From: Patescibacteria group bacterium
GTDB lineage: Bacteria > Patescibacteriota > Microgenomatia > UBA8517
Length of the DNA: 64,000 nucleotides
Direction: 5' to 3'
Assembly: GCA_041742135.1 (NCBI GenBank)
Contig: JBGSJG010000008.1
Span: forward strand, 232,964-296,963
Notes under the pieces: generated by a model
What the model was told of the DNA's origin: nothing
The model's database searches: none
What the model saw: the letters and a program-made list of their open reading frames with translations, nothing else
Part shown: piece after piece, positions 2,559-64,000 of the stretch
Layout: each line of letters starts with the position of its first letter
Position numbering within the stretch: the first letter of the stretch is position 1
Position numbers and translations under genes: made by a program

Positions 2559-2825
2559 GATTGGCTTGACGAGCGCGAGTTAACCAAAGAGCAGCTAAGT
2601 GTTACGTCAATTAAAGTTGAAGGTGTAGATAAAAGAGGAATTCTTTCTGACGTGTCTACTTGGGTTTCTGATTTTAAAGGAAACATTGTGGTGCTTGAGT
2701 CCAAATCACAAAACGGTAGATTTTCAATGCTTTTAGTTGTAAAAGGGATTTGCTCTGAAAATGAAGAATCCTTAAAGCAACACTTTGTTGATGATGAGAG
2801 ATTTGAGATTTGGAAGATTGTCTAG
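2550..2825 (+). pseudogene. RelA/SpoT-family C-terminal ACT-domain remnant; no start codon
   Basis: Manual translation gives ...ELTKEQLSVTSIKVEGVDKRGILSDVSTWVSDFKGNIVVLESKSQNGRFSMLLVVKG..., which matches the ACT domain at the C terminus of (p)ppGpp synthetases. The ORF opens right after a stop and has no Met. Confidence 0.4.
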
Positions 2826-2834
2826 TTTTTATAG

Positions 2835-3027
2835 CACCAAGTAATCACATTTTACATCGGGACATCGGTTCAAATTCGTTTTAGAATTTCAATACTAAAA
2901 AAACAAACAGATCGAACATCGACTAAACAGTTCGAATCCTATCGGGGTCGCTTGCCAGTTGATGTTCGAACTTGGATAAGTCTTAATCCCACAGATTTAA
3001 TCTCATTAAATTATGTTACTGCTTAAT
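2835..3027 (+). pseudogene. C-terminal fragment paralogous to the end of the 5678..6115 protein (..ESYRGRLPVDVRTWISLNPTDLISLNYVTA*)
   Basis: Manual translation. It shares the GRLPVDVRTWIS core; 25 nt are identical at the DNA level (tgccagttgatgttcgaacttggat). No start codon. Confidence 0.4.
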
Positions 3028-3072
3028 TTTAAACCCCTGAAATTTGATGGGGAATGATTTGAAGAATAGGTC

Positions 3073-4155
3073 TCAAACAGTAAAGAATTTTGCTGCGCTG
3101 TTGGAGAAAACATCGGATTTTGCTTGCTCTGCTAGTGTCGGCTCAGGATACAGCTGGCTGATCGCATCCCGAATTGCTGTAAGTGATTCCCAATGAATGT
3201 GCACAGCTCCTAAGGCTAAGTGTTTGTATCTTTCGTGATCATCTTTATCAACCCAATGAAAGGGATATTGTGTAACAACTCTTTGCCCTTTTGTGGGATG
3301 ATCATAGAGAACGAATCTGAGTAGGTTTAATGGCTCATCGGTTCCAAACATTATTCGCTTTGTGCCAAATGTACTGAAAGCAGTTTTAAATACTTCTTTA
3401 GAAGCAATCATTGATGTATCCATTGAAATGTTTGGGTATTGGGCTAATTCCGCGTATGTTTCTTCTAAGTTAGGCATTAAAACAGCTGCTAAGCCCATAT
3501 GAGCTAAGCTTATTTTTAAGTTTGGAAATGTTCTTGCCACTTCAATCAATTCGTCTTTACATTCGGTAACAATTTTTGGTAAATGTAAAATTATCGGTGT
3601 TTCAGTTTCTTCGCTTACTCTCAATATATCGGGAGGGAAGTATTGATAAATATTCTTTGCATGGGGATTAAACATTTGATGATACATTTTCAAAGCTTTG
3701 AATTGTTTTGTTCTTAACATCGAATTTGTATAGTCGGGATCATTTGGTATTCCACATAACACGACATTGTCTGGATCTGTTACATTTTTTATTAAATATT
3801 CGTTTGCGCTTTTAATATCTATGCCTCTAAAAGGGAAGGGGAACCGTAATCTACTTAGATTTTTTCCTTCAAACATTGCCCTTTTAGCTTTGTCTGAGTC
3901 TTCGAGACTAAATTGGAGAAAAGTACTATTTAACTGACCGTACATATGATCGTCAATCTCATATACATCTCTAGAAAGCCCACAATGCGTATGGCAGTCA
4001 ATCAAAGTATCTGGAAGCCATTCTTTAAATTCCTGAACTAAAGCTGTTTCTTTCTCTGTAAAAGATAACGAGTTTTCGACATATGTTACAAATGGAATAC
4101 CTCGAGTTCTTTCTGTCATTTTGGGATTGTACCATTTTGATAGGTCAGATAACAA
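3073..4155 (-). CDS. amidohydrolase-2 family (TIM-barrel metal-dependent hydrolase)
   Basis: IDCHTHCG metal-binding motif near the N terminus and FGTDEP near the C terminus, typical of PF04909-like amidohydrolases. Confidence 0.55.
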   Translation of the reverse strand: MLSDLSKWYNPKMTERTRGIPFVTYVENSLSFTEKETALVQEFKEWLPDTLIDCHTHCGLSRDVYEIDDHMYGQLNSTFLQFSLEDSDKAKRAMFEGKNLSRLRFPFPFRGIDIKSANEYLIKNVTDPDNVVLCGIPNDPDYTNSMLRTKQFKALKMYHQMFNPHAKNIYQYFPPDILRVSEETETPIILHLPKIVTECKDELIEVARTFPNLKISLAHMGLAAVLMPNLEETYAELAQYPNISMDTSMIASKEVFKTAFSTFGTKRIMFGTDEPLNLLRFVLYDHPTKGQRVVTQYPFHWVDKDDHERYKHLALGAVHIHWESLTAIRDAISQLYPEPTLAEQAKSDVFSNSAAKFFTV

Positions 4156-4340
4156 ATGAGGCCAAAATTACAATACTTATAATGACTCCACCAAGTCATT
4201 ACCTTATAATTTTGAGGAGATTGAGAAAGGGAGGATTATATCTTCGAAGTTTCCCGAGATCGGTTTCTAAAGTTTTAAGTGATAGAAGATGGTAAAATTC
4301 AAATAGTTGTATTAAAATTTGCAGATTCCGATATACTAGT

Positions 4341-5600
4341 ATGAAAAATAAAAGAATGAGAGAAAGAGAGATACTAAATCCGGCAGAGCTTGAACAGAGA
4401 GTTGACGAACTACTCACTAGAGGGGTTGTTGACGTGATTAATAGGGAGCACTTGAGAGAGAGGATGCTTTCTGGTGATGTTTTAAGAGTGAAGTTTGGTA
4501 TAGATCCGACTGGTCCAAATATTCATATTGGAAGAGGATCCACAATTAAAAAACTTAGGGAATTTCAAGATTTAGGCCATCAGGTTGTTTTGATAATTGG
4601 TGATGCTACGGCGCAAATAGGTGATGCTTCAGATAAAGAAAGTACAAGAAAAATGCTAAGTGCAGAGGAAGTAGCTTCGAACAAAGCAAAGTACTTAGAA
4701 CAAATTGGGAGAATTATAGATATCGATAAAACAGAAATCCACCACAATAGTGAATGGACAGATCAACTTACACCCAAAGACTGGATTCGCTTGGGAAGCC
4801 TTTTTACCTTGCAGCAGATAATACAACGAGACAATTTCGCTAAAAGAATAGCAAAAGATAATCCGGTCGGATTTCATGAAGCCATGTATTCTCTACTTCA
4901 AGGTTTTGATTCTGTGAACATAGAAGCAGATGTTGAAATAGGAGGCACCGACCAACTATTCAATTTACTTGCTGGAAGAAAAATACAAGAGCATTTTGGG
5001 CAAAAGCCTCAAGATGTTATGACACTGCAACTATTAGCTGGAACCGATGGAAGAAAGATGAGCACAAGCTGGGGTAATGTGATACTGGTCAACGAACCCC
5101 CAGAAGAGAAATATGGAAAAGTAATGAGAATAGCCGACCCACTTATACCAGTGTACCTAGAAAATGCAACATTAATGCCTATGGAGAAAGTGCGTGAGAT
5201 AAGAGTGGCACTAGAAGAAGGTACAGGAAATCCTATGGATTACAAAAAAGAGCTAGCATATGAGATAGTGAGTTTTTACGATGGGGAAGAGTTGGCAAAG
5301 CAAGCACAATCAAACTTTGAGCAGGTAGTCCAAAAACAGGAAGTTCCCAATGAGATGGCCGCTATAAAAGTTTCACACGAACTAAGCGTTACGGAATTGT
5401 TTGATGTTTTAAAAGGAGCTAACTTAGTTAAGAGTAAAGCAGACGCAAAGCGATTAATGGATCAAGGCGCAATCCAAATAGGAGATTCCAAATTAAAGGT
5501 CGATGATTTGAAGACCTTGGTTGATATGCCTCAAGATTCTGAAGGGATTGTTGTAAAAGTAGGTAAACGAAGATTTGTACGCTTAGTGGTTGGAGAATAA
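4341..5600 (+). CDS. tyrS: tyrosine--tRNA ligase
   Basis: GIDPTGPNIHIGRG (HIGH-type motif), LIIGDATAQIGDAS, KMSTS (KMSKS motif) and a C-terminal S4-like domain. Confidence 0.85.
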   Translation: MKNKRMREREILNPAELEQRVDELLTRGVVDVINREHLRERMLSGDVLRVKFGIDPTGPNIHIGRGSTIKKLREFQDLGHQVVLIIGDATAQIGDASDKESTRKMLSAEEVASNKAKYLEQIGRIIDIDKTEIHHNSEWTDQLTPKDWIRLGSLFTLQQIIQRDNFAKRIAKDNPVGFHEAMYSLLQGFDSVNIEADVEIGGTDQLFNLLAGRKIQEHFGQKPQDVMTLQLLAGTDGRKMSTSWGNVILVNEPPEEKYGKVMRIADPLIPVYLENATLMPMEKVREIRVALEEGTGNPMDYKKELAYEIVSFYDGEELAKQAQSNFEQVVQKQEVPNEMAAIKVSHELSVTELFDVLKGANLVKSKADAKRLMDQGAIQIGDSKLKVDDLKTLVDMPQDSEGIVVKVGKRRFVRLVVGE

Positions 5601-5677: not shown

Positions 5678-6115
5678 ATGCAAAAATCTTTTTGGGATAT
5701 TGTAGGTGTCAGTTCTGAAATTCAGACTATTAACGAAGATTCTATTGTAGACGCTGTCCGTGTAGCTTTTATTAGTAATAAGCATAATTTTTATACAAGC
5801 TGTTGGTTTATCGACATTAAAGAAAAGTTTAGAATATTTAGATTTCATAATATTGCATACATTGCAAAGAAAATAAGTAATGAAAAAGCCGAGAAAGAGA
5901 TTAGTAGTTCTCTAAAGGCTTTCAATAAACTTGATGGTAAAGCAGTTGGAACAAAAACAATGAGGATAGTGGTTCCTAAAAAGATTACTTCTTCAAAGGA
6001 TAGCAATAAGTGTTTCCTGATATCAGAATATTTGGGTCGCCTGCCAGTTGATGTTCGAACTTGGATTAGTCGAAACCCAACAGGTCTAATTGGCTTAAAT
6101 TATATTGCTTTATGA
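5678..6115 (+). CDS. hypothetical protein; its C terminus (GRLPVDVRTWISRNPTGLIGLNYIAL) is duplicated as a fragment at 2835-3027
   Basis: ORF only; no recognisable motif. Confidence 0.35.
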   Translation: MQKSFWDIVGVSSEIQTINEDSIVDAVRVAFISNKHNFYTSCWFIDIKEKFRIFRFHNIAYIAKKISNEKAEKEISSSLKAFNKLDGKAVGTKTMRIVVPKKITSSKDSNKCFLISEYLGRLPVDVRTWISRNPTGLIGLNYIAL

Positions 6116-50929: not shown

Positions 50930-52837
50930 CTAACTAGTGAGCATCTTTCCCAAACCCGGGATTTTCCCCACTAGCTCCCGAATTTTGTTTTTACTCGCTA
51001 GAGGTGGCTCATTGGCCGTATTTGCAGACAAAGTGCCATTAGGAGGCGACACAGGGGCGACCACTGCCTCTTTTGGAGGCACTTCTTCAGCTTCTTCCTG
51101 CTTTTCCGGTATTTCTGGACCAAGCAGGATGTTAACGTATTGATCTAAGTCTAGTTCTTCCAGAACCATTTTCTGCAGAGCTCGCTTTCGGATAAGCCAT
51201 CGTTTTACATCTGCTGGGCTGTTTGGGTCTGGTTTATCCTGTGCGATAAACTTGTCATATAAAAGTAAGATCTGATTTAGTCGTGCTTGTTTGTCAGGCG
51301 GAATCACTGGTTCGACTTCAACAATTGCATCTACGTGGACTTTTTTATCCTCTGATTTGAATTCCTTGAAGTTCACACTGTTACCTACGATACGGTACAG
51401 TTTGTCCTCACTTAAGAACTCACGATTCAGTTGAATAAGGATATTGGCTACTGTAGTCAAGGCATTGGAAATGTTCTGAGCGTTTATGCTTAATCGCAAA
51501 TTACTTTGACCCAACAGCATTGCTACTTTGCCAAGTGGCTCGCTCGATGACCTTGGGAGACCCTGCAGATACTCGCCTAACGCTAAAGTTCTGGAGATCT
51601 CGTCCCTGAGGAGTTTGTCTTCATTAAGTCCCATTAAGCTGATTTCTGGCGGCCGTTCGATCACCACATCATCCATTTTCCTGAGTTCCCACACGGCACC
51701 TGGCGAGAAGATGATGTCATTTTTAGTTATTCCAGTGTCTTTACGAATTTTGACCACTGGATCAAGCATCAATATCACATCATCCATTCGTTGGTTGCGA
51801 AGATCAGCAATCTCCATAATTGTGCTTTCAACTGGCTCAACATGACCTGTTGCCCAGAACTCCCACAGCAGTGACATATCGGGGAGGTCTACATAAATAT
51901 GCCCATTGTTAATATCCAGGTAAGGATTTTCGTCATCTCTGATTACTACTTCACCGTTGGCTATCACTACCAATTCGTCTTCTTCGTAGTCCCAGCACTC
52001 CCACAACTCCAATTGCTTTTCCTGATCGTTTTTAACAGGTAGGACTTTTTGTTCTCCCGTATCAGCTTTTTTTAGATCACCGTCAATCTGAGACATTTTC
52101 TTTGTATTGATCTCATAGCGCTCTTTTTTCCAATCTTCCACATTCTTAGGTTCACAATATTCAATATTTTTATAAATGTTGTTTTCACCTCGGTTTTCTT
52201 CCTCCTTGGTGATTTTTTCTTTTGTCTTAACTATCCTATGTATCAGCCAAGGGCAACCTTCCTGAAGGTCTTCTGTTTCCGGAGCTGGTAGAAAATCCCA
52301 CAAGTCACAGAGAATCATTGTTGGATCGTCGTACAACGTTTTGAACGTGCCGTCTGACTTTTTCCTGCTTTTAACTTTCCATGCTAACTTAACTATTCCA
52401 TTTCCATACAACACAGAAGATTCGATCCAATTGGGGAGTTTCTTGGCTAACTCAATAATATCGAAGTCGTAATTCACCAGGTCATCCCAGGAGGATAAGG
52501 ATTTGGACTCTACATCACGTTTGTCTCTTGGGATCACTCGGGTTTTGCGCTTAGCTGTTGCTAGACGTGAGACAACCGTTTTGACGATCTCAAAAGCAAT
52601 CGGCGGCATTAGCCGAGTGTTGTAGGCGTAATTTTGTTTATGTTGATAGGCCCGATATAGTCTGTACATTCTGAGCCACTTGGCTTGGTACGGCTCGCGA
52701 AACTCTTTTGCACGCTTAAATCTGGCCTTCCATTTTTTGAGAAGTTCTTCGTCACGTTCAGAAGGTGTGTATCTTTTCTGAGGTGTGATCTTTGTTTCTT
52801 TAACTTTAGGCTTTGACATAGTGGTGTTGACCAACAA
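50930..52837 (-). CDS. phage portal (head-tail connector) protein, T7 gp8-like; TTG start, or ATG at 52819
   Basis: The segment RPPEISLMGLNEDKL parallels T7 gp8 RPEDISFLQLEKQ; the N-terminal basic/aromatic region and size (635 aa) fit a portal. Confidence 0.55.
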   Translation of the reverse strand: MLVNTTMSKPKVKETKITPQKRYTPSERDEELLKKWKARFKRAKEFREPYQAKWLRMYRLYRAYQHKQNYAYNTRLMPPIAFEIVKTVVSRLATAKRKTRVIPRDKRDVESKSLSSWDDLVNYDFDIIELAKKLPNWIESSVLYGNGIVKLAWKVKSRKKSDGTFKTLYDDPTMILCDLWDFLPAPETEDLQEGCPWLIHRIVKTKEKITKEEENRGENNIYKNIEYCEPKNVEDWKKERYEINTKKMSQIDGDLKKADTGEQKVLPVKNDQEKQLELWECWDYEEDELVVIANGEVVIRDDENPYLDINNGHIYVDLPDMSLLWEFWATGHVEPVESTIMEIADLRNQRMDDVILMLDPVVKIRKDTGITKNDIIFSPGAVWELRKMDDVVIERPPEISLMGLNEDKLLRDEISRTLALGEYLQGLPRSSSEPLGKVAMLLGQSNLRLSINAQNISNALTTVANILIQLNREFLSEDKLYRIVGNSVNFKEFKSEDKKVHVDAIVEVEPVIPPDKQARLNQILLLYDKFIAQDKPDPNSPADVKRWLIRKRALQKMVLEELDLDQYVNILLGPEIPEKQEEAEEVPPKEAVVAPVSPPNGTLSANTANEPPLASKNKIRELVGKIPGLGKMLTS

Positions 52838-55422: not shown

Positions 55423-57729
55423 TCAAAATTTGAATGCGCTGCTCAAAATTGCATTAAAGCTGTTCTCGCTGTTAACAGCTGTGTGGGGCAGAAGTTTGTA
55501 TATCCATTTTTTCTTCGTAGCGTTTGTAGCGATTTTGCACCATTCTTCTGCCTGCTTTGCTTTTTCCAATACCTCTGGATCTCTTTTGTCGAGCTTACTT
55601 TTATCTTTAACCTCAACTAAATAATAAGCGTCTTTATGTTCAACAATAAAATCTGGATTGTAGTTACCATAAATGTATCTGATCGGCAGTTGTCCATTTC
55701 TTAGTCTCAACCAGCTCACTACCGATTTATCTCTATCGAGTGAGTCTGCCAATAATTTCTCTTGAGCAGAATCAAAGTCATAGGCAGGATATACGCTTTT
55801 CTTATACCCCTCAATAATATTCCCTCTGGATTCAGACTCATTGACCTCATCTTTATTCAAAGGCACAGCAGATTTTTTAACCGTTTTGAAATATGGCTCA
55901 AACTCTAATTCCTCGTCGAGAACTCTATATTCAATTTTAGTCTGCTCTTGAATTTTTTCTCTTAGTTGAGGCAACACATCGTTTAAAATGGTTTGTTCGT
56001 GAAGTTTGACCAATTTTGACAATTCCTTACCTTTTGCTGGCAGTTGATCAAGATAATGTTTAATTATTTTTTGCAGTGTAGCTTTAAAAGAGACATCAAA
56101 TTCGCTCATCTCCAGAATTATTAATCTGACCATTCTGTTAATTGGATCAATTCCTTCTTTAATTTCAATATCGCCAGCTTCTTCTGTTTCCTGAGAGACA
56201 ATATCGGCTTTAACAAGTTTGGGGGTAATCTTCTTAAGTTCTTCTAGTCGCAGTTCTATAGGAAAGAACTCCAGTTTATTACTAGATTTTACCTTTGCCT
56301 CCACCACGGGGATACTAATCAAAAGTTTTTTGTCTTCAACAGGCTTAATTTCAACAGTTTTAAGCCCCTCTTTCTTTTCAGCTTTCTTAACTCCTAATCC
56401 TTCAGCGACTTCATGAGCGACCGAAACTACTCTAGAAAAGTTGTCATGCGAAATAATGTCCAAAGAGTCTAACTCCTCAACGCCTGTAAGCTCACCAAAA
56501 GGTAATCTCAAACCCCTACCAATTGTCTGTTCAATTAAAGTCTTGCTTATTGATGCTCTAAAGGGAATTATCGTATAAACGTTTTTAACATCCCAGCCTT
56601 CTTTGAGTTTGTCTACATGAATAACAATTTCATTTTTATTGACAGGGTAGGGTTCTTCCAAACGAAGAAGTTGGTTAATGGAATCAACCTCACTTTCGCT
56701 TGTCACAAGCAAGGTTTTGTTTTTATAATAACCTTCAAAAAAATCATCACTCTCAATCAAACTTTTTACATCTTTTGCATGCTGAATACTTTTTGTTGTA
56801 AGCAGGGTAATTGGGAGAACAAATGGTAGCTTGTTATTTTTACAATACTCCTCAATCAAGGCCTTCTTTTCTTGATGTCTTCTAATACCATCCTCAAGTT
56901 TGACCATCTCAAGATCGCCTTTGTAGGTATAATCATCGCTTCTGGCAATAACATAGGGCACCTTGATATACCCTCCTTTTGCGCCATTACCATTGCCTAG
57001 GCTCTCCAAAGCCTTCTTAGAGTCGTTTATGGCGTCTCCAAGCGTGTATGAGTAGACAATATTCTCACTGATTGGGGTAGCAGTAAATTCTAATCCGAGT
57101 TCTGGTTTTAGGTGGTTGATTGCTTTTATAGACTTGAGGCCACGATACCGATGACTCTCGTCCATCATTATCACAAGATCTTTTTGCTGGAGAAGTTCAG
57201 CAAAGCTGGATCCCAATGTCTCTTGAAACTTGTGAAATTTAAACTCAACGTCAGTTCGCTCGTTGAATATTTTTTGAATGTTAAACACATATATATTTAG
57301 CGATTCAAAAAGTTGATTGGCAAAATTAGAATACTCATAGTTTTCGCCGGTTATTAGATTGAACAATGGAAAATCGGTTAAACCTTCGAAAACATATTTT
57401 TTGCTTCCCGGGGTAAAGTTTTCAATCGTTTTTGTGTAGATTGTTTCACCCGGGGTAAGTATAAAAAAGTCCTTCAGACCTTTCGTTTCATATAGGTAAG
57501 CAATCATTGCTGCCATGAGCCTGGTTTTACCCACACCTGTAGCCAGAGCGAAGGTAAAGGAAGGAAACTCAGTATCAAACTTAATGTTTCCCACCAATTT
57601 GACTTCAATATCTTCTATGCTTTCCTTACCCAATTTAACATTCGAAAGTAATGTGTCTAGCTTTATCAGTGAAAGCTCTTGTGGTTTTCTTAAACTTAAT
57701 TCTTTAGTGGTTTTATCGATTATCTTCAT
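55423..57729 (-). CDS. res: Type III restriction enzyme Res subunit (SF2 helicase plus C-terminal PD-(D/E)xK)
   Basis: ATGVGKTRL (motif I), IMMDESHRY (DExH), C-terminal NPDFIVEH...LVEVKDK. Overlaps mod by 4 nt. Confidence 0.75.
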   Translation of the reverse strand: MKIIDKTTKELSLRKPQELSLIKLDTLLSNVKLGKESIEDIEVKLVGNIKFDTEFPSFTFALATGVGKTRLMAAMIAYLYETKGLKDFFILTPGETIYTKTIENFTPGSKKYVFEGLTDFPLFNLITGENYEYSNFANQLFESLNIYVFNIQKIFNERTDVEFKFHKFQETLGSSFAELLQQKDLVIMMDESHRYRGLKSIKAINHLKPELGLEFTATPISENIVYSYTLGDAINDSKKALESLGNGNGAKGGYIKVPYVIARSDDYTYKGDLEMVKLEDGIRRHQEKKALIEEYCKNNKLPFVLPITLLTTKSIQHAKDVKSLIESDDFFEGYYKNKTLLVTSESEVDSINQLLRLEEPYPVNKNEIVIHVDKLKEGWDVKNVYTIIPFRASISKTLIEQTIGRGLRLPFGELTGVEELDSLDIISHDNFSRVVSVAHEVAEGLGVKKAEKKEGLKTVEIKPVEDKKLLISIPVVEAKVKSSNKLEFFPIELRLEELKKITPKLVKADIVSQETEEAGDIEIKEGIDPINRMVRLIILEMSEFDVSFKATLQKIIKHYLDQLPAKGKELSKLVKLHEQTILNDVLPQLREKIQEQTKIEYRVLDEELEFEPYFKTVKKSAVPLNKDEVNESESRGNIIEGYKKSVYPAYDFDSAQEKLLADSLDRDKSVVSWLRLRNGQLPIRYIYGNYNPDFIVEHKDAYYLVEVKDKSKLDKRDPEVLEKAKQAEEWCKIATNATKKKWIYKLLPHTAVNSENSFNAILSSAFKF

Positions 57730-59423
57730 ACTTTAAATTTCCTTAATAATACATCTGGAACTCTTTTAACTTCTATATTATCTGGTAATTTTAAATTTTT
57801 GGAAATAGTTTTTGCATAGATGACAATATAGTCAGCCTCGACGCCCACTTCATTTTCTAGAACTCTCACATAGTCCTGAGTAACGTATTGCTCAGTAACA
57901 TGAGCTATAGTTCTCCCAGCAATTCCGTGTAGCCCATTGTCAGGGTGTAACAATTTAAATCCTTCAACTTTTAGTACTGCTCTAATCAAAGGACCATTGA
58001 ACATCTTGGGGTTGAGAACTGTTAGTTTAAGGTCATTATCTTGAACGAATAAGCTCTCGCCAAGTTCAAAATACTTGAACCCACTGCCACCGTTCCAACG
58101 TGCTGTTTTAGTGATTCCGCTTTTATCTTTACCAAGGACAATTTTTTCTAATCGAGGAGTAATATGTGTCTCTGCGTGTCCACCTATTTCTACCATGACC
58201 CATTTTCTGCCCATTTTATGTGCGACTGCACCAGTTGTTCCAGATCCCGCAAAGCTATCCAATACCCAATCACCCTTTTCTGTCGCTAGGTCAATGATGC
58301 GTCTTAGGAGGGTTTCTGGTTTTTTACCTCTCCTGAAGTCTACCGATCCTTCGTTGGCCAAATCAGCTTTGGGAATCTCAGCATGACCCCAGAAATCAGT
58401 CATTTTGTTTTCTTTGACAATACCTTCTTCAGTTTTAGAAGCAGAATCTTTTAACCAAGCAAATAGCTCTTTATTTAAGTAGTAATTTGTAACTTCTTGA
58501 CCCTTATATCTGCCTCTACTCGGGATATAATCTACCGAATACAAATTTTTATCCATTCTCGAAATTAATTCGTGTTGAAATGAATTTTCTTTTTGAGGGT
58601 TGGTTGTTCTGAAGATGTTCTCGAAATTATTCTTATACTGTTCTCTAATTTCTTCTTCTCTGTCAGCAAAACTCCTTAGAGAAATGGATTCAATATCATA
58701 ATCTGAGTGTTTATAAATTTTCACCATTTCGCCGTTGGATTTCGAAGCAAACTCTCCAATTAGTTTTTTAGAACCCTTATTCTTGAGGATATATCGATAT
58801 CGTTGCATCACCTTTTTTTCCAATGGATATCTGCTAAGAGCTTGTGCTAAGTCAATTGAAGCTATATCTTTTGCAAATACCAAAACATACTCATGAGTGT
58901 TTACAAGAAACTTTCCACCCTGACCAATACCAGCACTACCTGATCTTTCATATGCTATCTGTGCCAAGAAGTTTTTTCTACCAAAAACTTCATCTAAAAT
59001 CATTCTGCAGTAATGTACTTCTGTATCGTCTAAGTGAATCCAGATAGTCCCATCTTTTTTAAGTAGTTTATGCAAGAGCGTAAGTCTATCTCGCATCATT
59101 GTCAGCCAGATTGAGTGCTCTAATCCATCATCGTAATGATCGAAGGCTTGTCCTGTGTTAAATGGAGGATCTATATAAACTAGCTTTATCTTGTTTCTAA
59201 AATCTTGAAGTAGTGCTTTGAGAGCAAGCAGGTTATCTCCCTTAACTAACATATTTTCAGAGTTTTTTTCACCAAATGATGATTTTTCAAGGAAAATACG
59301 AGGCTCTGATACTCTCGGATCTTTTTTGTCTACCCAAACGTATGTCTTTTCATTCAAGTCATAAAAGAGACTCTTGTCTTTGTTAAACCAGGTTAGTTCT
59401 AATTTTGTATCGTTTTTAGCCAT
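57726..59423 (-). CDS. mod: Type III R-M Mod subunit (beta-class N6-adenine/N4-cytosine DNA methyltransferase); the ORF is open to 59486 but the internal Met (MAKNDTKLELTWFNKDK) is the likely start
   Basis: VYIDPPFNTG (motif IV) precedes DSFAGSGTTG (motif I). Confidence 0.8.
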   Translation of the reverse strand: MAKNDTKLELTWFNKDKSLFYDLNEKTYVWVDKKDPRVSEPRIFLEKSSFGEKNSENMLVKGDNLLALKALLQDFRNKIKLVYIDPPFNTGQAFDHYDDGLEHSIWLTMMRDRLTLLHKLLKKDGTIWIHLDDTEVHYCRMILDEVFGRKNFLAQIAYERSGSAGIGQGGKFLVNTHEYVLVFAKDIASIDLAQALSRYPLEKKVMQRYRYILKNKGSKKLIGEFASKSNGEMVKIYKHSDYDIESISLRSFADREEEIREQYKNNFENIFRTTNPQKENSFQHELISRMDKNLYSVDYIPSRGRYKGQEVTNYYLNKELFAWLKDSASKTEEGIVKENKMTDFWGHAEIPKADLANEGSVDFRRGKKPETLLRRIIDLATEKGDWVLDSFAGSGTTGAVAHKMGRKWVMVEIGGHAETHITPRLEKIVLGKDKSGITKTARWNGGSGFKYFELGESLFVQDNDLKLTVLNPKMFNGPLIRAVLKVEGFKLLHPDNGLHGIAGRTIAHVTEQYVTQDYVRVLENEVGVEADYIVIYAKTISKNLKLPDNIEVKRVPDVLLRKFKV

Positions 59424-59430
59424 AATTCTT

Positions 59431-60717
59431 TTATCCCTTATTGTAAACGCTGAATTCACTACCGGATAATACAGGAGTTTTGCCAACGTACATTTTCTTC
59501 ATTTTTTTGTCAGTCAGATTAAAAGCGTGACCATTGCCAATTTTATTATTGGCAAGGGAAAGGGGACTTTTACCGAGATTTACTTGATAAGCAATTGTGT
59601 CCATAAAAGCTACCCTGCCAATCAAGTTGCCTTTTAGCACCTCGAATGCTACAAAATAGTGGTTATTGCCTTGCTTTACTTTTTGAGCAACAAAGCTGTT
59701 GTCTCCCACGCTTACAAAATCCTCGGCATTACCCGTGCCTTCTCTTATAAAATTACGAATAGGCTTTAAATTCCCTGAGAAAACATTTGAAAGAACTCCA
59801 CTTTTGTCTGCACAATAAGTAAAATATTCTAGCGCCACCTTCGCCACAAAGCGGGCAGTATTCACATCTACATCTTGAGACGCAATGAAACTCGACTTAA
59901 TTTGTTTTGGCTGCTCGTCATCATTGACTGTTTCCTTGCTTGATCCTGATTTTAACCCCAAATTCTTTAGTGCAGCTTGCACAATTTCAGATGAATCGTC
60001 TCTATCTCCAATCCAGTCTGCCGATTCAGTTCCTTCTCTAAAACTTCTTATCTTATATTGCAGCTTTTTAATTTTATTTTGGGATTTTATATTAGCCACT
60101 TCCTCTGCGAAGATGAGGGCATGGAGGTTACCTTTTTTTAACAAAAGAATGGGGTCTTTGGTAAAACCGACTTTATCTAATGCACTTTTTACTAATAGCA
60201 ACAGTGGATTGTATTCAATTGTGGTTTCGGGAGAAAAGTGGAATTTTAGGAGGCTTGAATCGTAAAGAATAACTGGACTTTGTTTACCTGTCTTTCTTAT
60301 GAGGAGAAGTCTTGCTATTAAGCCTTCAAAACTTTTTTCTGCAAAGTGTTTTTCAATTGTCTCGCCCAATTTGCTATTACATTGGTCACAAACAACATCC
60401 CCTTGAAAGAATAAATCCGGCTGAAAATTACCCATAAACTGGCTCAAAATGTGAGCCTTTTTCTTGAAAGAGTTTGGTTCTTGGCTACTGCAGTAAATGC
60501 ATTTGGGGGTTTGTCTATTCATATTTATTTTCTTATTGTTCAAGATTGCCTCAATATCTTTCGGATCATAGCGCCTGTCACCACGTTCATTCACTATAAT
60601 TGCTTTCAGCTTGCCTCGTTTATCCCAACGCCTTAACGTTTCCGAATGAACGTTTAGTATTTCGGCCGCCTGCTTGATAGTTAGCAGCTTTGGTAGCTGA
60701 TGTTTTTTCTTCGGCAT
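59431..60717 (-). CDS. HTH (excisionase/MerR-type) plus HNH/Zn-ribbon plus large unknown C-terminal domain protein, 8 nt upstream of mod
   Basis: LTIKQAAEILNVHSETLRRWDKRGKL; CIYCSS...KKAHI...CDQCN. Confidence 0.5.
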   Translation of the reverse strand: MPKKKHQLPKLLTIKQAAEILNVHSETLRRWDKRGKLKAIIVNERGDRRYDPKDIEAILNNKKINMNRQTPKCIYCSSQEPNSFKKKAHILSQFMGNFQPDLFFQGDVVCDQCNSKLGETIEKHFAEKSFEGLIARLLLIRKTGKQSPVILYDSSLLKFHFSPETTIEYNPLLLLVKSALDKVGFTKDPILLLKKGNLHALIFAEEVANIKSQNKIKKLQYKIRSFREGTESADWIGDRDDSSEIVQAALKNLGLKSGSSKETVNDDEQPKQIKSSFIASQDVDVNTARFVAKVALEYFTYCADKSGVLSNVFSGNLKPIRNFIREGTGNAEDFVSVGDNSFVAQKVKQGNNHYFVAFEVLKGNLIGRVAFMDTIAYQVNLGKSPLSLANNKIGNGHAFNLTDKKMKKMYVGKTPVLSGSEFSVYNKG

Positions 60718-60760
60718 ACCTATACAAAATTATACAAAAATAATGACTGAAATGGTATAG
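60701..60760. repeat. copy A of a duplicated promoter/5' cassette (ttcttcggcatacct-atacaaaattatacaaaaataa-tgactgaaatggtata)
   Basis: ~80% identical to 63188-63250. The minus sense contains TATAAT ~12 nt before the ATG of 59431..60717. Confidence 0.6.
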
Positions 60761-60787
60761 CAATAAGCGAAAGAGTCTTCATAAAAG

Positions 60788-62209
60788 TCATGTTTGGTTG
60801 ACTGATTTGAGTCTTTTCCATATTTCTACCATTGCTAGCGTATCTAGCCTGCAGTACTTGAGTAAATTCTTTCTAACTTGATCTTTTTGTTCTTCTGAAG
60901 CATTCCCATGCACAACCTCCCACCATCGGGTCATAGCTGTTGCCCCTTCGGCAATTTCCATATCATCGTAACTAAGCTCGGGACATAATACTGGTAAAAC
61001 TTTTTTAATAGAGGCACTGCCATGAAAGCGGTAGTCAACATAAAGACCATTTTTAAAAATATCCATTAGATCGAAAACTCGTCCATTAATACCTTCAATC
61101 TCGTTGCTGTAAACTGGTTGTAGAATGGCTAATTCTTCATTCCGCTTACATTCAAAGTGTTTGTTCCAGACGATGACTGAACCACTATCACCAATAACTT
61201 TCATTAGCGCCTCGGTAAACTGAGGGCTAGGTTCATCGACTTCAGTAGTGATAAATTCGTAGTGGCTTAATTGAGTATCCTCTGGCTTTGCCAATACGTG
61301 TAAGGAGAATTGAAAGACGATATGTTGATAGGGTGTGTAGCTGTCATGAATAGGAATAGCAGGCCCAAATGTTTCATAGTCTAAAAAGTAATGAGGGAAG
61401 GTTAGATTTCCCAACTCTCTACTTATTCCCTCTCGGTCGATTATCGCCTGTTGAGTTTTAATTGAACGTAGTTGAAGTATCTGTTTGGGGTTTAAGTCTT
61501 CCGTTTCATCAATATCTACAAGGTTTGAATAGCCTTTTTCTACCAGTTTTTCGTACTGACCTACTTTCCACCATGACAAGTCATAAATTGGGTACTCTCC
61601 TAGATTTGGGTGGCATAGTTGGAGGCAGGAGCAGTCGTTAGGTTTATAGCAGCGATTTTCTGGTGGATTATCTGCTTTTAGAACTTCTAACGCCTCGGAC
61701 CGCAATTTGAAGACTTCATCCTCAAGCTTAGCGATTACGTTTGCCATGTCTTCAACCAAGAAAAACTTTTGTAAGTCGATTTGACCATTTTTTACATAAT
61801 CTCCATTTACATGCACCAGGTATGTTTTATGAACGGGCAGTGTAGCCTTACCAATAAGATGTTGAAACGTCACATCATACTTATTCTGCTTATCAACTTT
61901 AGTACTGCTCTTTATCTCGTATAAGTCATATGTGTTATTAAGTGTGTCATGTACCAAAGCATCAATTCTGGCTTCGTAGTTGCCGTCAGTCAGGACGTAT
62001 TGAAAATCTATAGTGCTTCCAGGGGGATATTCCGCTTCAACTTTGTTTTGTAGAAATTGTTTGGCAAGACGCTCAACTTCATAACCTTGTTTTGCTATTA
62101 ATTGATCATAAGCCGAGAACTTTTTACTCTCCAGTTTGCCATTGACCTCTGCCCACAAGTGCATTGGTGAATCTAGAAATGTAAGGAAGTTGGATTTAGT
62201 TAGTATCAT
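60788..62209 (-). CDS. DUF2779-type protein: N-terminal RecB/Cas4-like PD-(D/E)xK nuclease plus C-terminal DEDD-like 3'-5' exonuclease fold
   Basis: DLYEIKSSTK; CYKPNDCSCLQLC Cys cluster; YFLDYETF. Confidence 0.55.
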   Translation of the reverse strand: MILTKSNFLTFLDSPMHLWAEVNGKLESKKFSAYDQLIAKQGYEVERLAKQFLQNKVEAEYPPGSTIDFQYVLTDGNYEARIDALVHDTLNNTYDLYEIKSSTKVDKQNKYDVTFQHLIGKATLPVHKTYLVHVNGDYVKNGQIDLQKFFLVEDMANVIAKLEDEVFKLRSEALEVLKADNPPENRCYKPNDCSCLQLCHPNLGEYPIYDLSWWKVGQYEKLVEKGYSNLVDIDETEDLNPKQILQLRSIKTQQAIIDREGISRELGNLTFPHYFLDYETFGPAIPIHDSYTPYQHIVFQFSLHVLAKPEDTQLSHYEFITTEVDEPSPQFTEALMKVIGDSGSVIVWNKHFECKRNEELAILQPVYSNEIEGINGRVFDLMDIFKNGLYVDYRFHGSASIKKVLPVLCPELSYDDMEIAEGATAMTRWWEVVHGNASEEQKDQVRKNLLKYCRLDTLAMVEIWKRLKSVNQT

Positions 62210-62229
62210 TTACTGTTATTGATTACTTT

Positions 62230-62481
62230 TTAGTCATAGGGATCAAGTCCAAAATTCTTTTTAGCTCGTTCCTCATTTGCCTTGTTCACTTCTGCAATTT
62301 CATTTCGGTTTCTTCTTTGGATTTCCTCCTCACTTTCCAGCTCCTCAGGGTAAAAGTTTTGTGGCACGCCGTTTTCCATTCTTACCTGAATTTTTTGTTC
62401 CCCGTCTTCTTCCAACTCTTTAAGAACAACTCCCTTGCCCATAACTTTATGCCTAACAACCATTCCTCTCGTAAAATTCAT
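62230..62481 (-). CDS. small (83 aa) protein, 4-nt overlap with the upstream HNH gene
   Basis: ORF; N-terminal GMVVRHKVMGKGVV is KOW/SH3-like. Confidence 0.35.
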   Translation of the reverse strand: MNFTRGMVVRHKVMGKGVVLKELEEDGEQKIQVRMENGVPQNFYPEELESEEEIQRRNRNEIAEVNKANEERAKKNFGLDPYD

Positions 62482-63167
62482 GAAGACACCTCCTCTCTCT
62501 CTTGAAGTAAAAATTCATTTAACTTACCTACTGCCATTGAGATGGCCACCTGACTTTGCCTATAAGCCTCCAGTAATCTGTTTGTAACCTCAGCAAAGGC
62601 GTTCCCCTCAGCCCTTGTGTTTGCGTACATATTAACAAAGGTATTTACTCTCCCTACTCCAGCATATGCTTTGTTGATCTCGTCTCTTAAACCATCTGGC
62701 AAGAGCAGAAGCGAGCCTTGAGCTATGGATCGGTTGTATTCGTTATCATGGAGTATACATCCTATTTTGTCCTGCCATTGAGAGCCGCTTGTGAACTGTT
62801 TTACAACCAACTCATTGTGCCCTAATTCTAGAGACATACCCTCTAACGGGCCGACATCAACATCCCTTGGGGCGGAAATAAGTGCTTCTGGATGCTTGGA
62901 GCAAGTCTCCAGCCACTGTTTCTTATGTGCAAGTAATTCTATTTTAGTGAACTTTCTTCCTCTTGGATGAGCATCGTTGTAATGATTTACCTCAGCGTGG
63001 CACTCAAAACATAGTGGTATGGCATTCTCAATATCGTCACTTCCACCATCAGCCTTATGTTCAACGTGATGAAGTTCCATTTTAACGCCACAAAATCTGT
63101 GACACACGCAGCATCTCCTGTGGCAATGAGCTAGTAGTTTTGAAACTTTATTTTTATCAAAAGCCAT
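62478..63167 (-). CDS. HNH endonuclease-domain protein with ~150-aa unknown C-terminal domain
   Basis: CHRRCCVCHRFCGVKMELHHVEHKADGGSDDIENAIPLCFECH. Confidence 0.6.
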   Translation of the reverse strand: MAFDKNKVSKLLAHCHRRCCVCHRFCGVKMELHHVEHKADGGSDDIENAIPLCFECHAEVNHYNDAHPRGRKFTKIELLAHKKQWLETCSKHPEALISAPRDVDVGPLEGMSLELGHNELVVKQFTSGSQWQDKIGCILHDNEYNRSIAQGSLLLLPDGLRDEINKAYAGVGRVNTFVNMYANTRAEGNAFAEVTNRLLEAYRQSQVAISMAVGKLNEFLLQEREEVSS

Positions 63168-63187
63168 ATTATTTATTAGTTGCCCAT

Positions 63188-63250
63188 TAGTTCTTCGGCA
63201 TACCTCTATTTAATTATACAAAAATAAAGCCTAAATTGGTATACTTGCAG
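63188..63250. repeat. copy B of the same cassette, in the divergent intergenic region. On the minus strand it carries an ATG CCG AAG AAC TAA remnant of the MPKK start.
   Basis: Direct alignment with copy A. Confidence 0.6.
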
Positions 63251-63257
63251 CACAACC

Positions 63258-64000
63258 ATGAGTGCAAAAAAAACGAATAACCATTTACCATCGCATAGTG
63301 ACAACGACTTTACAGATAAGGAGTCAGTAAGTCTTATTGAAAATATTTTAGCTCGCCACAAACGAGTAATGCCGAAGCTGTATTCGAGCGACAAATGGCC
63401 TAATATTGATGGTCATATTGAAGTCCAAGATATTAGTAATGTATTAATGGGGCGTTCATACGTGCAAGTAAAAACTTTTCCTGCCAACCATAATTTGAAA
63501 TTTGCATGCCCTGTATCTTTTCTCACAAGTTGTGAGCTAGACCCTTGTTTTTTGTTTGGTGTTGATAATCAAAATGGGAGGGTTTATTGGCTTTATTTCG
63601 ATGCTCAGGTTATAAAAGAAATTGATTTCGAAAACAATACATCCACAAAAACAATTGAATTTATTCAATCACAATACTTCGATAAGGATAAGGTTGATTA
63701 TGTTGAGGAGTGGGAAAAAATCATCAGAGATAACCAGCAAAAATTTAAGCAGTATAACGAGCTAAAAGAATCGTACGAGCTTATTCTCAGTAGTTCCAAT
63801 AGAGCCATAGGGAAAACTGATAAAAATTTTTCTAAAATTCATTTATTTCTTGATGAGTTGAACAGCGGACTCGATCACCAGTTTCGAATAGTAAAAGATA
63901 TTTTTTATCCACGAACTTGGAAAATAGGACTTGCGTACTATGACTATGAAGACACAAAGGTTGCCTACACTCCGTTTCCCATCCCAATTGATCAGAATGA
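63258..64000 (+). CDS. hypothetical protein, 3'-truncated by the window end; possible PD-(D/E)xK-like N-terminal region
   Basis: Manual translation is open from the ATG at 63258 to the window end (247 codons): MSAKKTNNHLPSH...WPNIDGHIEVQD... Confidence 0.35.
   Translation, partial: MSAKKTNNHLPSHSDNDFTDKESVSLIENILARHKRVMPKLYSSDKWPNIDGHIEVQDISNVLMGRSYVQVKTFPANHNLKFACPVSFLTSCELDPCFLFGVDNQNGRVYWLYFDAQVIKEIDFENNTSTKTIEFIQSQYFDKDKVDYVEEWEKIIRDNQQKFKQYNELKESYELILSSSNRAIGKTDKNFSKIHLFLDELNSGLDHQFRIVKDIFYPRTWKIGLAYYDYEDTKVAYTPFPIPIDQN

Follow-up and report, generated by a model that had tools for sequence, protein, structure and literature searches.

A repeated promoter-head borders a variable HNH nuclease cassette beside a type III restriction-modification operon in a CPR bacterium

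Promoter-early stem-loop (PeSL) sequences are mobile regulatory cassettes of T4-type phages (Arbiol et al. 2010, PMC2839356; PMC4122927). In the ORF192 topology, known from the comparison of RB49 with phi1, a gene stands between two copies of the cassette whereas the relative has a single copy (PMC2839356; PMC4122927). C proteins, together with their C-boxes, are the controllers of type II restriction-modification (R-M) systems (PMC2632904, PMC2175313). RptR (PMC12255303) and BrxR (PMC9122601) are defence-island regulators that travel with their operators, and the BldC family comprises minimal MerR-like winged-HTH regulators (PMC5859096).

We analysed a 64-kb stretch of a CPR (Patescibacteria) chromosome, hereafter the window. 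A repeat search across it reported a single direct-repeat family, made up of two ungapped 53-nt copies at 60707-60759 (copy A) and 63191-63243 (copy B), which are identical at 45 of 53 positions (85%) and spaced 2,484 bp apart, start to start. A preliminary description had reported a duplicated cassette of ~55 bp here; the repeat is real and survives proper, gap-free alignment, although it had been drawn a few bases too wide and its identity put too low, at ~80%. The longest exact blocks shared by the copies are 16 and 15 nt. Within the window, neither the 15-mer AGGTATGCCGAAGAA nor the exact 11-mer TTTTGTATAAT occurs outside copies A and B, and a 37-nt degenerate pattern derived from the conserved core of the two copies matched these two sites alone when scanned across the 64 kb (0.00 expected from 100 shuffles); no third copy was found anywhere in the window. 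The repeat takes in a putative promoter -10 box as well as the opening 11 nt of a coding sequence. Since only its short -10 core resembles other promoters of the window, it is not a generic, genome-wide AT-rich promoter.

Copy A heads the following operon:
60707..60759, minus strand: copy A of the promoter-head, ahead of HTH::HNH_5-Mod-Res
60729..60734, minus strand: -10 box (TATAAT) in copy A, 11 nt before the HTH::HNH_5 ATG at 60717
59431..60717, minus strand: HTH::HNH_5 fusion gene, 428 aa (Pfam, NCBIfam, PADLOC mad1, PDB 6amk/6ama BldC)
57726..59486, minus strand: type III methyltransferase Mod (PADLOC MTase_III, 1.7e-123; Pfam N6_N4_Mtase)
55423..57729, minus strand: type III restriction subunit Res (Pfam ResIII and RE_endonuc; PADLOC REase_III, 6.6e-90)

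Mod and Res lie together in one operon, as befits a type III R-M system. The true start of Mod is probably the ATG at 59423; in relatives, Mod begins 6 nt past the upstream gene. Residues 11-62 of the fusion protein form a BldC/Xis-like MerR-type HTH and the remainder is an HNH_5 protein, while in relatives the HTH and HNH_5 are encoded by two separate genes or the HTH is missing. An HTH domain or gene precedes (HNH_5)-Mod-Res in the window and in five relatives (L001, L014, L015, L044 and L054). The HTH has Pfam matches to MerR_1, HTH_17 and MerR, with none to HTH_3, and its structural matches are the BldC-DNA complexes 6amk and 6ama (E = 4e-4), the phage Xis 4j2n and MerR. It also matches the NCBIfam BldC and excisionase models, its BldC score (NF033787) of 28.3 bits being below the cut-off of 77. 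Stand-alone relatives of the HTH are, like BldC (about 60-70 aa) and Xis, small proteins (61-77 aa) with no other domain than the winged HTH, whereas the window's copy is fused to HNH_5. BldC is described as binding direct repeats head-to-tail (PMC5859096). The HTH further matches PADLOC mad1 at 5.8e-11. In the preprint on MADS, the methylation-associated defence system, mad1 figures as an accessory, widespread type of regulator; the mandatory MADS components MAD6-MAD8 were not found, and the other mad match, of Res to mad8 (E = 0.0079), has no stretch that passes alone.

As in C-protein systems, a small HTH gene comes first in the operon with a restriction gene downstream, and conserved DNA lies directly upstream of the regulator start, where the transcript is leaderless or nearly so (here predicted). 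C genes, too, occur with non-R-M cargo from mobile elements. The HTH of the window, however, has a MerR/HTH_17 (BldC/Xis-like) fold rather than one of Xre/Cro type, the R-M system is of type III with both Mod and Res downstream, and a clear TATAAT is present where C promoters typically have none. Neither a C-box consensus nor palindromic C-box operators, which stand ~18 nt before the start in C systems, were found in the head. The locus resembles those of RptR and BrxR in that a small regulator heads an R-M-centred defence island, regulator and promoter sites recur in conserved form from genome to genome, and members of one regulator family are found next to diverse defence systems. The head also holds three GTAT(A/G)C-like elements, of the GTATAC-like kind, reminiscent of the three RptR repeats that overlap the -10 box. 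The protein family and the host phyla differ; moreover, PMC12255303 and PMC9122601 propose no promoter recombination site and report no start-codon capture by unrelated genes.

Copy B has a different setting:
63191..63243, minus strand: copy B of the promoter-head, at the single-promoter position of related genomes, adjoining the divergent 555-aa-type gene
63213..63218, minus strand: -10 box (TATAAT) in copy B, 11 nt before the remnant ATG, read from the sequence
63187..63201, minus strand: remnant of the head, ATG CCG AAG AAC TAA, a 4-codon mini-ORF left from the opening codons of the HTH gene family
63168..63186, minus strand: decayed rest of the head, 19 nt, from the mini-ORF stop to the HNH229 start
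63240..63245, plus strand: TATACT -10-like box of the divergent gene, 12 nt before its ATG at 63258, read from the sequence
63258..64000, plus strand: divergent 555-aa-type gene, partial, the conserved left flank of the variable locus

The preliminary description had placed a TATAAT box and an ATG CCG AAG start within the repeat, a start-codon remnant before the HNH gene, and copy B in a divergent intergenic region facing the ORF at 63258; all three observations hold. Intact heads open with the same ATG CCG AAG as the copy B mini-ORF. The ATG of HNH229 (63167) lies 34 nt from the head ATG, no Shine-Dalgarno motif was found in the 19 nt ahead of it, and past +11 the remnant is too decayed for a significant alignment on its own. 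The divergent intergenic region measures 90 nt. Its TATACT box corresponds to the left end of the repeat, AGTATACC, in reverse complement, and the same divergent arrangement is present in L001, L015, L017 and L024. The upstream half of the repeat is the -10 box of the divergent neighbour, making the element a putative compact bidirectional promoter. At copy A the divergent -10 box has decayed to TATAGC and the divergent gene is absent.

A generic sigma-70 scan called neither copy, because both lack a TTGACA-like -35 element. TATAAT boxes 6-8 nt before an ATG that has no Shine-Dalgarno motif are common in the window, and the 11-nt spacing in copies A and B exceeds that of these other apparently leaderless genes. 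Such a spacing implies a near-leaderless mRNA, with a predicted leader of about 4 nt. By sequence, the head is a PeSL-like element, that is, an intergenic motif of ~50-100 bp with a sigma-70-like promoter reaching the ATG. Like a PeSL, it is a short conserved intergenic cassette with a -10 promoter (a strong one in PeSL) that extends to the downstream start codon. The stem-loop or terminator component of PeSL is absent: no terminator-like site was found at copy A or copy B (folding z-scores 0.15 and 0.46).

The DNA between the two positions encodes three genes:
60760..63243, no strand: unit present here and absent from same-flank relatives, 2,484 bp, one repeat copy plus three genes
62478..63167, minus strand: HNH229, 229 aa (Pfam HNH), with an N-terminal McrA-like HNH nuclease domain and a C-terminal helical bundle
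62230..62481, minus strand: HNH229 partner, 83 aa, its start overlapping the HNH229 stop, with a strong Shine-Dalgarno motif
60788..62209, minus strand: DUF2779 protein, 473 aa (Pfam DUF2779 at 2e-38), third gene of the inserted unit

HNH229 has 408 homologues and an AlphaFold model with a pLDDT of 86, whose best fold matches, ScoMcrA and EcoKMcrA, cover the HNH domain only (E about 0.06). HNH229 and its small partner are found across bacteria and archaea. At eight other sequenced loci the HNH229 homologue is followed by a homologue of the partner (74-82 aa; 61 aa or more in the incomplete L029 contig), and at a ninth a 77-aa ORF comes next. Searches of Pfam, PADLOC and NCBIfam gave no family match for the 83-aa partner. 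The DUF2779 protein is not a constant partner, being missing from other HNH229 loci. From the genomic context we infer that the three genes form a defence unit. Of the two linked defence units of the preliminary description, one is identified as a type III R-M system, whereas the HNH229-small-DUF2779 unit matched no known defence system in PADLOC.

WWE3 relatives (L001-L010, L036 and L044) contain one 53-nt copy, alignable with A as well as with B, and lack the 2,431 nt that separate the two copies here. By blastn, positions 7959-8011 of L001 align to copy A and to copy B, and window positions 60760-63190 have no counterpart in L001 or L044. These relatives share both flanks, namely Mod-Res-p803 and the 555-aa gene (the product of the divergent 63258 gene is 87% identical in amino acids to the 555-aa protein of L001), with a single promoter copy and no cassette. 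The indel is therefore bounded exactly by the repeat. As in PeSL, variable genes lie between two copies where a close relative has one (here the window against L001 and L044), and gain or loss by recombination between copies is proposed for both. With moderate confidence, we propose that promoter-heads are a portable regulatory element and that the 2,484-bp unit was gained or lost via homologous recombination between heads.

Two other readings of the indel carry little weight. Copies A and B might be alike through convergence or purifying selection for binding of a shared regulator and RNA polymerase, with an indel unrelated to the repeat. The resemblance of the -10 core to other promoters of the window would fit, as would the conserved regulator-operator pairs known in defence islands (RptR, PMC12255303). 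This reading is already disfavoured and very improbable, given that the edges of the indel coincide with the repeat to the base, that the similarity enters the coding sequence by 11 nt, which at copy B are untranslated junk, and that the spacing is identical family-wide. A mis-join at the repeated element would be conceivable in a metagenome-assembled contig, the more so as the relatives also come from metagenomes. We regard it as extremely improbable: exact A/B matches of 15-16 nt at most fall under the usual assembler k-mer sizes, the genes follow a coherent order in which the cassette points the same way as the operon, and the head::HNH junction is independently present in L024 and L029.

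L024 and L029 are other metagenome contigs in which the promoter-head::HNH229 junction stands beside unrelated divergent neighbours. The distance from the head ATG to that of the HNH229 homologue is 34 nt in L029 and 33 nt in L024, where the codons of the head can still be made out. Decayed heads are also retained before HNH229 homologues in L056, L058, L059 and L013, while in L011 and L057 HNH229 and the small partner occur without any head. The junction, shared at this offset in other contexts, thus predates the present locus. Copy B matches the orthologous single copy (L036/L001) at 49 of 53 positions, compared with the 45 it shares with copy A, and at 24 of 24 between -42 and -19. Over the same stretch copy A matches L036 and copy B at 20/24, as closely as it matches any other family member, and between -11 and -1 it carries the 'TTTGT' variant of L034 and L056, the resident variant being 'TAAGT/TAAAT'. 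The first codons of copy B, CCG AAG, are those of HNH-linked and other heads, where the ortholog has CCA AAC. The pattern of copy B appears chimera-like, on very few informative sites. The two copies are thus not each other's nearest relatives. Because copy B is nearer to the ortholog and its junction is shared by L024 and L029, it is not a fresh local copy of A. The earlier suggestion that the cassette had been copied or recombined is thus supported as regards shuffling via the shared sequence, and not as regards a recent local duplication of A into B.

Local duplication could nevertheless have taken another course. Illegitimate insertion of HNH229-small-DUF2779 may have hit the resident HTH gene at its 5' end, with ~60 bp of promoter and start duplicated in situ, either as a long target duplication or as a later tandem copy, restoring expression of the R-M operon. 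Direct repeats on either side of the insert would be expected, and the 20/24 match of copy A over -42 to -19 agrees. We consider this unlikely, since the junction with its 33-34 nt offset recurs beside unrelated neighbours, copy B is nearer to the ortholog, and copy A has the non-resident 'TTTGT'. We know of no transposition mechanism that makes a 60-bp target duplication. The likeness of copy A to the L001-type intergenic region runs slightly beyond the repeat, through ATTGCTA to about 60766; this left flank resembles the promoter on the 555-gene side, which local duplication would fit too.

HNH229 could also be a free-standing homing-type endonuclease that cleaves the conserved HTH head, its gene being copied in when the break is repaired. 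It is an HNH nuclease by Pfam and is matched by PHROG HNH endonuclease families, its gene is present or absent at an otherwise conserved site, and the junction recurs at the same fixed position in three contexts. This explanation is nonetheless quite unlikely. To the right of the cassette lie DUF2779 and a complete second promoter-head rather than the rest of an interrupted HTH gene, and the best fold matches are McrA-type restriction enzymes rather than homing enzymes. HNH229 and its partner also occur headless, spread over bacteria and archaea, and the head has been taken over by genes that encode no nuclease as well (L014, L043). In the arrangement observed, the left junction is fixed and the target does not continue on the right, unlike that of a free-standing HNH homing endonuclease.

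Copies A and B are members of a widespread promoter-head family of CPR bacteria. The family element is a TATAAT, kept in all members, 11 nt before the ATG-CCG-AAG start of a small (63-70 aa) BldC/Xis-like MerR-type HTH. Across CPR phyla, a protein search recovered 613 clusters of HTH relatives; of its top 120 matches, 65 begin with MPK. The conservation from the -10 box to the ATG is partly ascertainment, since the 32 metagenome loci were retrieved by a DNA pattern with 21 fixed positions; unbiased support comes only from the loci found by protein similarity (L001, L014, L015, L017 and L056-L059). The metagenomes contain at least eight cargo sets behind the head, type III R-M operons and at least seven others. 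The head precedes HNH_5, HEPN or pP_pnuc_1 genes, with Mod and Res next in line; elsewhere it stands before VWA with AAA_5, Mrr_cat with DUF4238, DUF4145, or a 465-aa protein with a methyltransferase. Its promoter and first codons have been captured by a Peptidase_S26 membrane protein gene (L014) and an unrelated ORF (L043), and truncated heads occur in L049, L038 and L032. A search for further copies in related genomes, which the preliminary description had called for, thus found a single copy in the WWE3 relatives and others ahead of different cargo in metagenomes; the variety of cargo and the cassette-free relatives support its proposal of modular shuffling via a shared promoter.

Under the promoter-head recombination that we favour, the head would be a compact bidirectional promoter of about 57 bp whose HTH stands at the front of type III R-M operons and of other defence-type cargo. 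Copy A would be the intact head driving HTH::HNH_5-Mod-Res. Copy B would occupy the ancestral promoter site next to the 555-aa-type gene and would now be fused to a decayed head remnant of ~34 nt, which in several genomes appears to travel with the HNH229-small pair and to serve it as promoter. The whole 2,484-bp unit, made up of head remnant, HNH229, small gene, DUF2779 and one promoter copy, would have been gained here, or lost from the relatives, most likely by a Campbell-type single crossover; the shared AGGTATGCCGAAGAA block or its vicinity is among the sites compatible with such an exchange. Copy B would then supply transcription of the cassette, its ATG mini-ORF probably giving ribosome loading to the Shine-Dalgarno-less HNH229, and copy A would give the R-M operon back a promoter of its own. 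The same HTH may use both copies as operators, which would place the cassette under the R-M regulator.

Recombination of this kind is, on our best reading, comparable to the PeSL cassettes of T4-type phages. The present element differs in lying on a cellular (CPR) chromosome rather than in a phage, in having two copies in the 64-kb window against about 50 per phage genome, in hyperplastic regions, and in being tied to a specific HTH regulator gene, first codons included. A cassette bracketed by two copies and missing from close relatives suggests that, in these tiny CPR bacteria of groundwater, recombination at a common regulatory element brings in, removes and re-wires defence genes.

The exact blocks of 16 and 15 nt are short for RecA-dependent exchange, which counts against this reading. 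Beyond the cassette, the R-M operon is 64-73% identical to that of L001, compared with about 80-91% for both flanks, and is closer to the L045 type than to L001; the locus is therefore a mosaic.

The 53 nt that lead into the gene for a 428-aa HTH-HNH protein occur twice on the minus strand of the window, as copy A (60707-60759) and copy B (63191-63243). A repeat search of the window placed these in one repeat family, 2,484 bp apart and aligned without gaps at 45 of 53 positions, which confirms the preliminary description in its claim that the promoter and 5' sequence of the HTH-HNH gene recurs near a second HNH gene. A 37-nt degenerate core pattern has only these two sites in the 64-kb window (shuffles expect 0.00), and neither the 15-mer AGGTATGCCGAAGAA nor the exact 11-mer TTTTGTATAAT occurs in it outside the two copies. 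Each copy contains a perfect TATAAT 11 nt upstream of ATG. Two further points of that description, the minus-strand reading ATG CCG AAG AAC TAA before the HNH start and the position of copy B facing a plus-strand ORF, were borne out by the gene order:

From 63258, plus strand: divergent ORF, on the other side of copy B
63201-63187, minus strand: mini-ORF ATG CCG AAG AAC TAA, at copy B and followed by 19 nt
63167-62478, minus strand: HNH gene, 229 aa (HNH229)
62481-62230, minus strand: small gene, 83 aa
62209-60788, minus strand: DUF2779 gene, followed by 28 nt and then copy A
60717-59431, minus strand: gene for a 428-aa protein, with a MerR/HTH_17 domain at the N-terminus and also an HNH_5 domain
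After the 428-aa gene, minus strand: Mod and Res of type III, followed by the gene for an 803-aa protein

At 70% identity, the nearest full-length homologue of HTH-HNH_5 belongs to the CPR candidate division WWE3 and was recovered from groundwater metagenomes. Ten contigs with this homologue share the order opposite-strand 555-aa gene, 57-bp intergenic region, HTH-HNH_5, Mod, Res, 803-aa and 629-aa genes, and the product of the window ORF at 63258 is 87% identical to their 555-aa protein. By blastn, the single 53-nt element of the relative L001 (7959-8011) matches both copy B and copy A, and no counterpart of window positions 60760-63190, which hold the cassette of HNH229, small gene and DUF2779, was found in L001 or L044, two relatives with the same flanks. 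The 2,484-bp unit is therefore an indel with its limits exactly at the repeat. A sliding comparison with L001 gives ~80-84% identity for the 555-type gene and 81-91% for the 803-aa gene, with a drop to 64-73% over the restriction-modification (R-M) operon, where part of Mod is at 36-40%. The window HTH-HNH_5 and Res are nearer to the L045/L015 haplotype (83% for HNH_5 and 89% for Res at the amino-acid level), which has flanking genes different from those of the window. The segment from the promoter to the 803-aa gene is thus a mosaic. A composition profile of the cassette revealed no clearly foreign base composition.

The repeat consists of a predicted promoter and the ATG-CCG-AAG start of a small BldC/Xis-like HTH gene, hereafter the head. 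Scanning metagenomes with TTTTGTATAMTT-N6-AGGTATGCC returned 32 loci with identical spacing throughout, though a pattern-based DNA search biases the apparent conservation of the head core. One of the 32, L051, is an evident chance match in GC-rich DNA. A search that used only the 63-aa HTH as protein query, and so escapes the DNA-pattern bias, gave 613 clusters; the best 120 of these (P0161-P0280) are all 61-77 aa long and 78-91% identical, and 65 of them begin MPK. Named sources of these 120 include Microgenomates, Gottesmanbacteria, Pacebacteria, Parcubacteria, CPR3 and some DPANN bins; several CPR phyla, Nanoarchaeota and Woesearchaeota are represented, and conservation is unusually high. 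Such a distribution suggests either frequent horizontal spread or binning cross-talk between episymbionts. A scan of genome contigs with TATACCANTNNNNNCNTNNNTTTTGTATA gave six matches, five of them in non-CPR genomes outside those inspected; the single CPR match (L019) was rejected as a head copy, as it falls within coding sequence and has the look of a chance match. In a viral collection the sole match to the head was the contig of L036, another WWE3 relative, and Rfam and tRNA scans found nothing near the element.

Of the 53 nt, copy B shares 49 with the orthologous single copy (L036/L001), 47 with each of L044 and L029 and only 45 with copy A; the best matches of copy A are copy B (45), L034 (44) and L036 (43). 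From -42 to -19, copy B and L036 are identical (24/24). The first codons of copy B (CCG AAG) are those of other heads; L036 and L044 have CCA AAC. The resulting pattern of copy B looks chimeric, on few informative sites. By these comparisons, copies A and B are members of a wider family and not a fresh local duplicate. The earlier proposal that a shared promoter reflects shuffling of defence cassettes is supported by the repeat-bounded indel, with this refinement to the origin of the pair.

In favour of local duplication as the source of the A/B pair is the sequence ATTGCTA, still present in the flank of copy A and shared with the L001 promoter on the 555 side. Against it stands the head-HNH junction itself, which recurs in two loci with HNH229 homologues (77-81% identity), the distance from head ATG to HNH start being 33 nt in L024, 34 nt in L029 and 34 nt in the window, with unrelated divergent neighbours in all three. 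Four further HNH homologues found by protein similarity (L056, L058, L059 and L013) retain the TATAAT and GTTGAGGT portions, or recognisable head debris; that of L011 has no head sequence in front of it. Judged across these loci, the head remnant is of long standing in the lineage of the HNH gene, and local duplication is therefore the less likely origin. A functional upstream peptide at copy B was considered and rejected because the reading state of the remnant differs among loci: its codons are fused in frame with the HNH protein in L024 (there MPKKNTTSPNN), form a 15-codon ORF overlapping the HNH start in L029, are absent in L056 and make a 4-codon ORF in the window. HNH229 is without a Shine-Dalgarno motif; ribosomes may load at the remnant's terminal ATG and would then re-initiate at HNH229.

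The source record annotates the HNH gene as 209 aa (P0030, from an internal GTG start), while homologues align from ATG 63167, giving 229 aa. The predicted model of HNH229 (pLDDT 86) has an N-terminal HNH domain and a helical bundle. Its nearest folds are the restriction enzymes ScoMcrA and EcoKMcrA, matched through the HNH domain alone (E ~0.06), and the C-terminal bundle gave no informative fold match. A conserved small gene follows the HNH homologue in 8/8 other loci with retrieved DNA, encoding 74-82 aa where complete (at least 61 aa in L029, where the contig ends within the gene), and a ninth locus has a 77-aa ORF at this position. The small proteins (window 62230-62481, minus strand; L011, L013, L056-L059) share the motif FxRGxVVxHKxMGxG...VRMxNG...FYPEELE and matched no known family. 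The pair occurs in many unrelated contexts, one archaeal bin among them; DUF2779 is not a constant partner. None of the three cassette proteins matched a known defence system in PADLOC, NCBIfam or PHROGs, and from its context a role of the cassette in defence is plausible.

Intact heads open a separate ORF of 63-70 aa and precede at least eight different cargo sets of nuclease, R-M or ATPase type. These comprise HNH_5, HEPN or pP_pnuc_1, each followed by Mod and Res; a 207-aa protein with Res-like and Mod-like genes; VWA with AAA_5; Mrr_cat with DUF4238; DUF4145; and a 465-aa protein with a methyltransferase. In the type III R-M operons led by the HTH, a variable second gene sits between HTH and Mod: HNH_5 in the window (59431-60717), L001 and L045, HEPN in L054 (2394-3056), L034 and L048, pP_pnuc_1, a predicted pPIWI-associated nuclease, in L044 (3792-4520), and a 207-aa protein without assigned family in L026 (2680-3303). 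This slot looks like an interchangeable accessory-nuclease position.

Heads have also been captured by other genes. In L014, a 601-aa Peptidase_S26 membrane protein (2583-4432) starts from this promoter and ATGCGGAAAAAAAT; it is inserted before HTH-HNH_5-Mod-Res, and the HTH behind it starts MDKNN and lacks its own promoter copy. In L043, the promoter plus ATGCCGAAA begins an unrelated ORF, and the head of L049 reads MPK-stop. Truncated heads occur in L032 and L038, one adjoining a tRNA gene: that of L038 (~538-800) is cut after 22 codons and abuts an opposite-strand tRNA gene, and may be the scar of an island deleted at a tRNA-linked site.

On the gene strand the repeat has AGTATACC at its left end, which reads TATACT on the opposite strand, 12 nt before ATG 63258, and in L017 a TATACT box lies 7 nt before a divergent ATG. 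At most loci a divergent gene starts 20-35 nt from the T-tract, these neighbours belonging to at least 12 unrelated families. The element is thus predicted to be a compact back-to-back promoter. At copy A the divergent box has decayed (TATAGC) and there is no divergent gene. A Shine-Dalgarno-like motif precedes only 12 of 50 window ORFs, and in many first genes the ATG follows a TATAAT-like box by 6-8 nt and such a motif is lacking (gene starts at 5678, 6165, 6638, 7169, 13971/15135 and 40042 are examples), so leaderless initiation looks common in the source genome. The head itself would give a leader of ~4 nt. A generic sigma-70 scan called neither copy, owing to the lack of a TTGACA-like -35. 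A terminator scan found none between DUF2779 and copy A, making read-through from promoter B into the R-M operon likely. Riboswitch, attenuator and terminator readings of the repeat were rejected because copies A and B, folded as RNA, were no more structured than shuffled controls.

The HTH matches the BldC-DNA structures 6amk and 6ama, a phage Xis and the PADLOC mad1 profile, as well as NCBIfam BldC and excisionase models below their cut-offs. An HTH of this type is also found as the N-terminal part of proteins with different C-terminal domains (P0024-P0029), of 290 aa, 694 aa and, with an alanyl-tRNA-synthetase-like region, 428 aa; their N-termini differ (MNKLL, MDKLL). BldC binds head-to-tail on direct repeats (PMC5859096). 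For a large share of C proteins, translation from leaderless RNA is predicted (PMC2632904), and RptR travels with repeats overlapping its -10 box (PMC12255303); both serve as models for reading the head as the operator of its HTH. By this analogy we infer that the head is a candidate operator, in which case promoter B would put the HNH cassette under the R-M regulator. A MerR-type operator between -35 and -10 was rejected, there being no dyad there. BldC-type AATT-N4-C repeats were noted in the head as a lead only, the region being AT-rich.

In the PeSL cassettes of T4-type phages, promoter copies flank variable genes and recombination between copies is the proposed mechanism (PMC2839356). The present locus is similar: the variable genes lie between two copies in one genome, and a close relative carries just one copy. 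It differs from the known PeSL kind in lying in a cellular CPR defence locus, in its tie to a BldC/Xis-like HTH and in including the first codons of the HTH gene. We propose that a Campbell-type crossover could have joined a resident head with a circle carrying head remnant, HNH229, small gene, DUF2779 and promoter. Such a crossover fits because the left part of copy B is resident-like, copy A carries the 'TATAATTTTGT' variant present also upstream of the closest HNH homologue (L056), and both share the 15-nt block AGGTATGCCGAAGAA. An equally good fit is recombination between A and B that removed the unit from the relatives. The element is, on this sequence evidence, probably a regulatory cassette doubling as a recombination site, with few informative sites bearing on the crossover. 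We regard as improbable, and offer as speculation, the broader reading that the ~57-bp head and its HTH form a dedicated CPR cassette-exchange device, integron-like without an integrase, whose cargo leaves as promoter-bearing circles and re-inserts at any resident head. The excisionase-like HTH would then bend or synapse head copies, cargo would spread between CPR phyla, and newcomers would automatically come under the resident regulator and a leaderless start.

CPR bacteria (Patescibacteria) have tiny genomes and few CRISPR systems, and their gene regulation and gene flow are poorly understood. What matters here is that one highly conserved, bidirectional and apparently near-leaderless head, a predicted promoter, coincides exactly with the edge of a cassette indel that separates close relatives. 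Were head recombination a general route, it would explain both the lasting modularity of CPR defence islands and the way in which incoming genes gain expression and regulation in a single step, and a mechanism known to date from T4-type phages would then apply to cellular genomes as well. To our knowledge, almost no transcription factors have been characterised in CPR bacteria, for which the HTH and head offer a candidate operator-regulator pair.

Just past the 803-aa gene and the type III R-M operon, a 635-aa portal-like protein (50930-52837, minus strand) stands alone, matching Pfam SU10_portal (35.6 bits against a cut-off of 30) and PHROG head-tail adaptor and portal families. It is kept in L001-type relatives as the 629-aa protein. 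On its far side, to ~42 kb, the genes examined look cellular (an epimerase, APH-type kinases, PIG-L and others), and a 54-kb relative contig (L060) appears as a viral genome in the IMG/VR listing. The Mod ORF as mechanically listed has a TTG start and overlaps the end of HTH-HNH_5 by 56 nt (59421-59486, minus strand); the 550-aa Mod of the relatives suggests that the real start is probably ATG 59423, 8 nt past the upstream stop codon.
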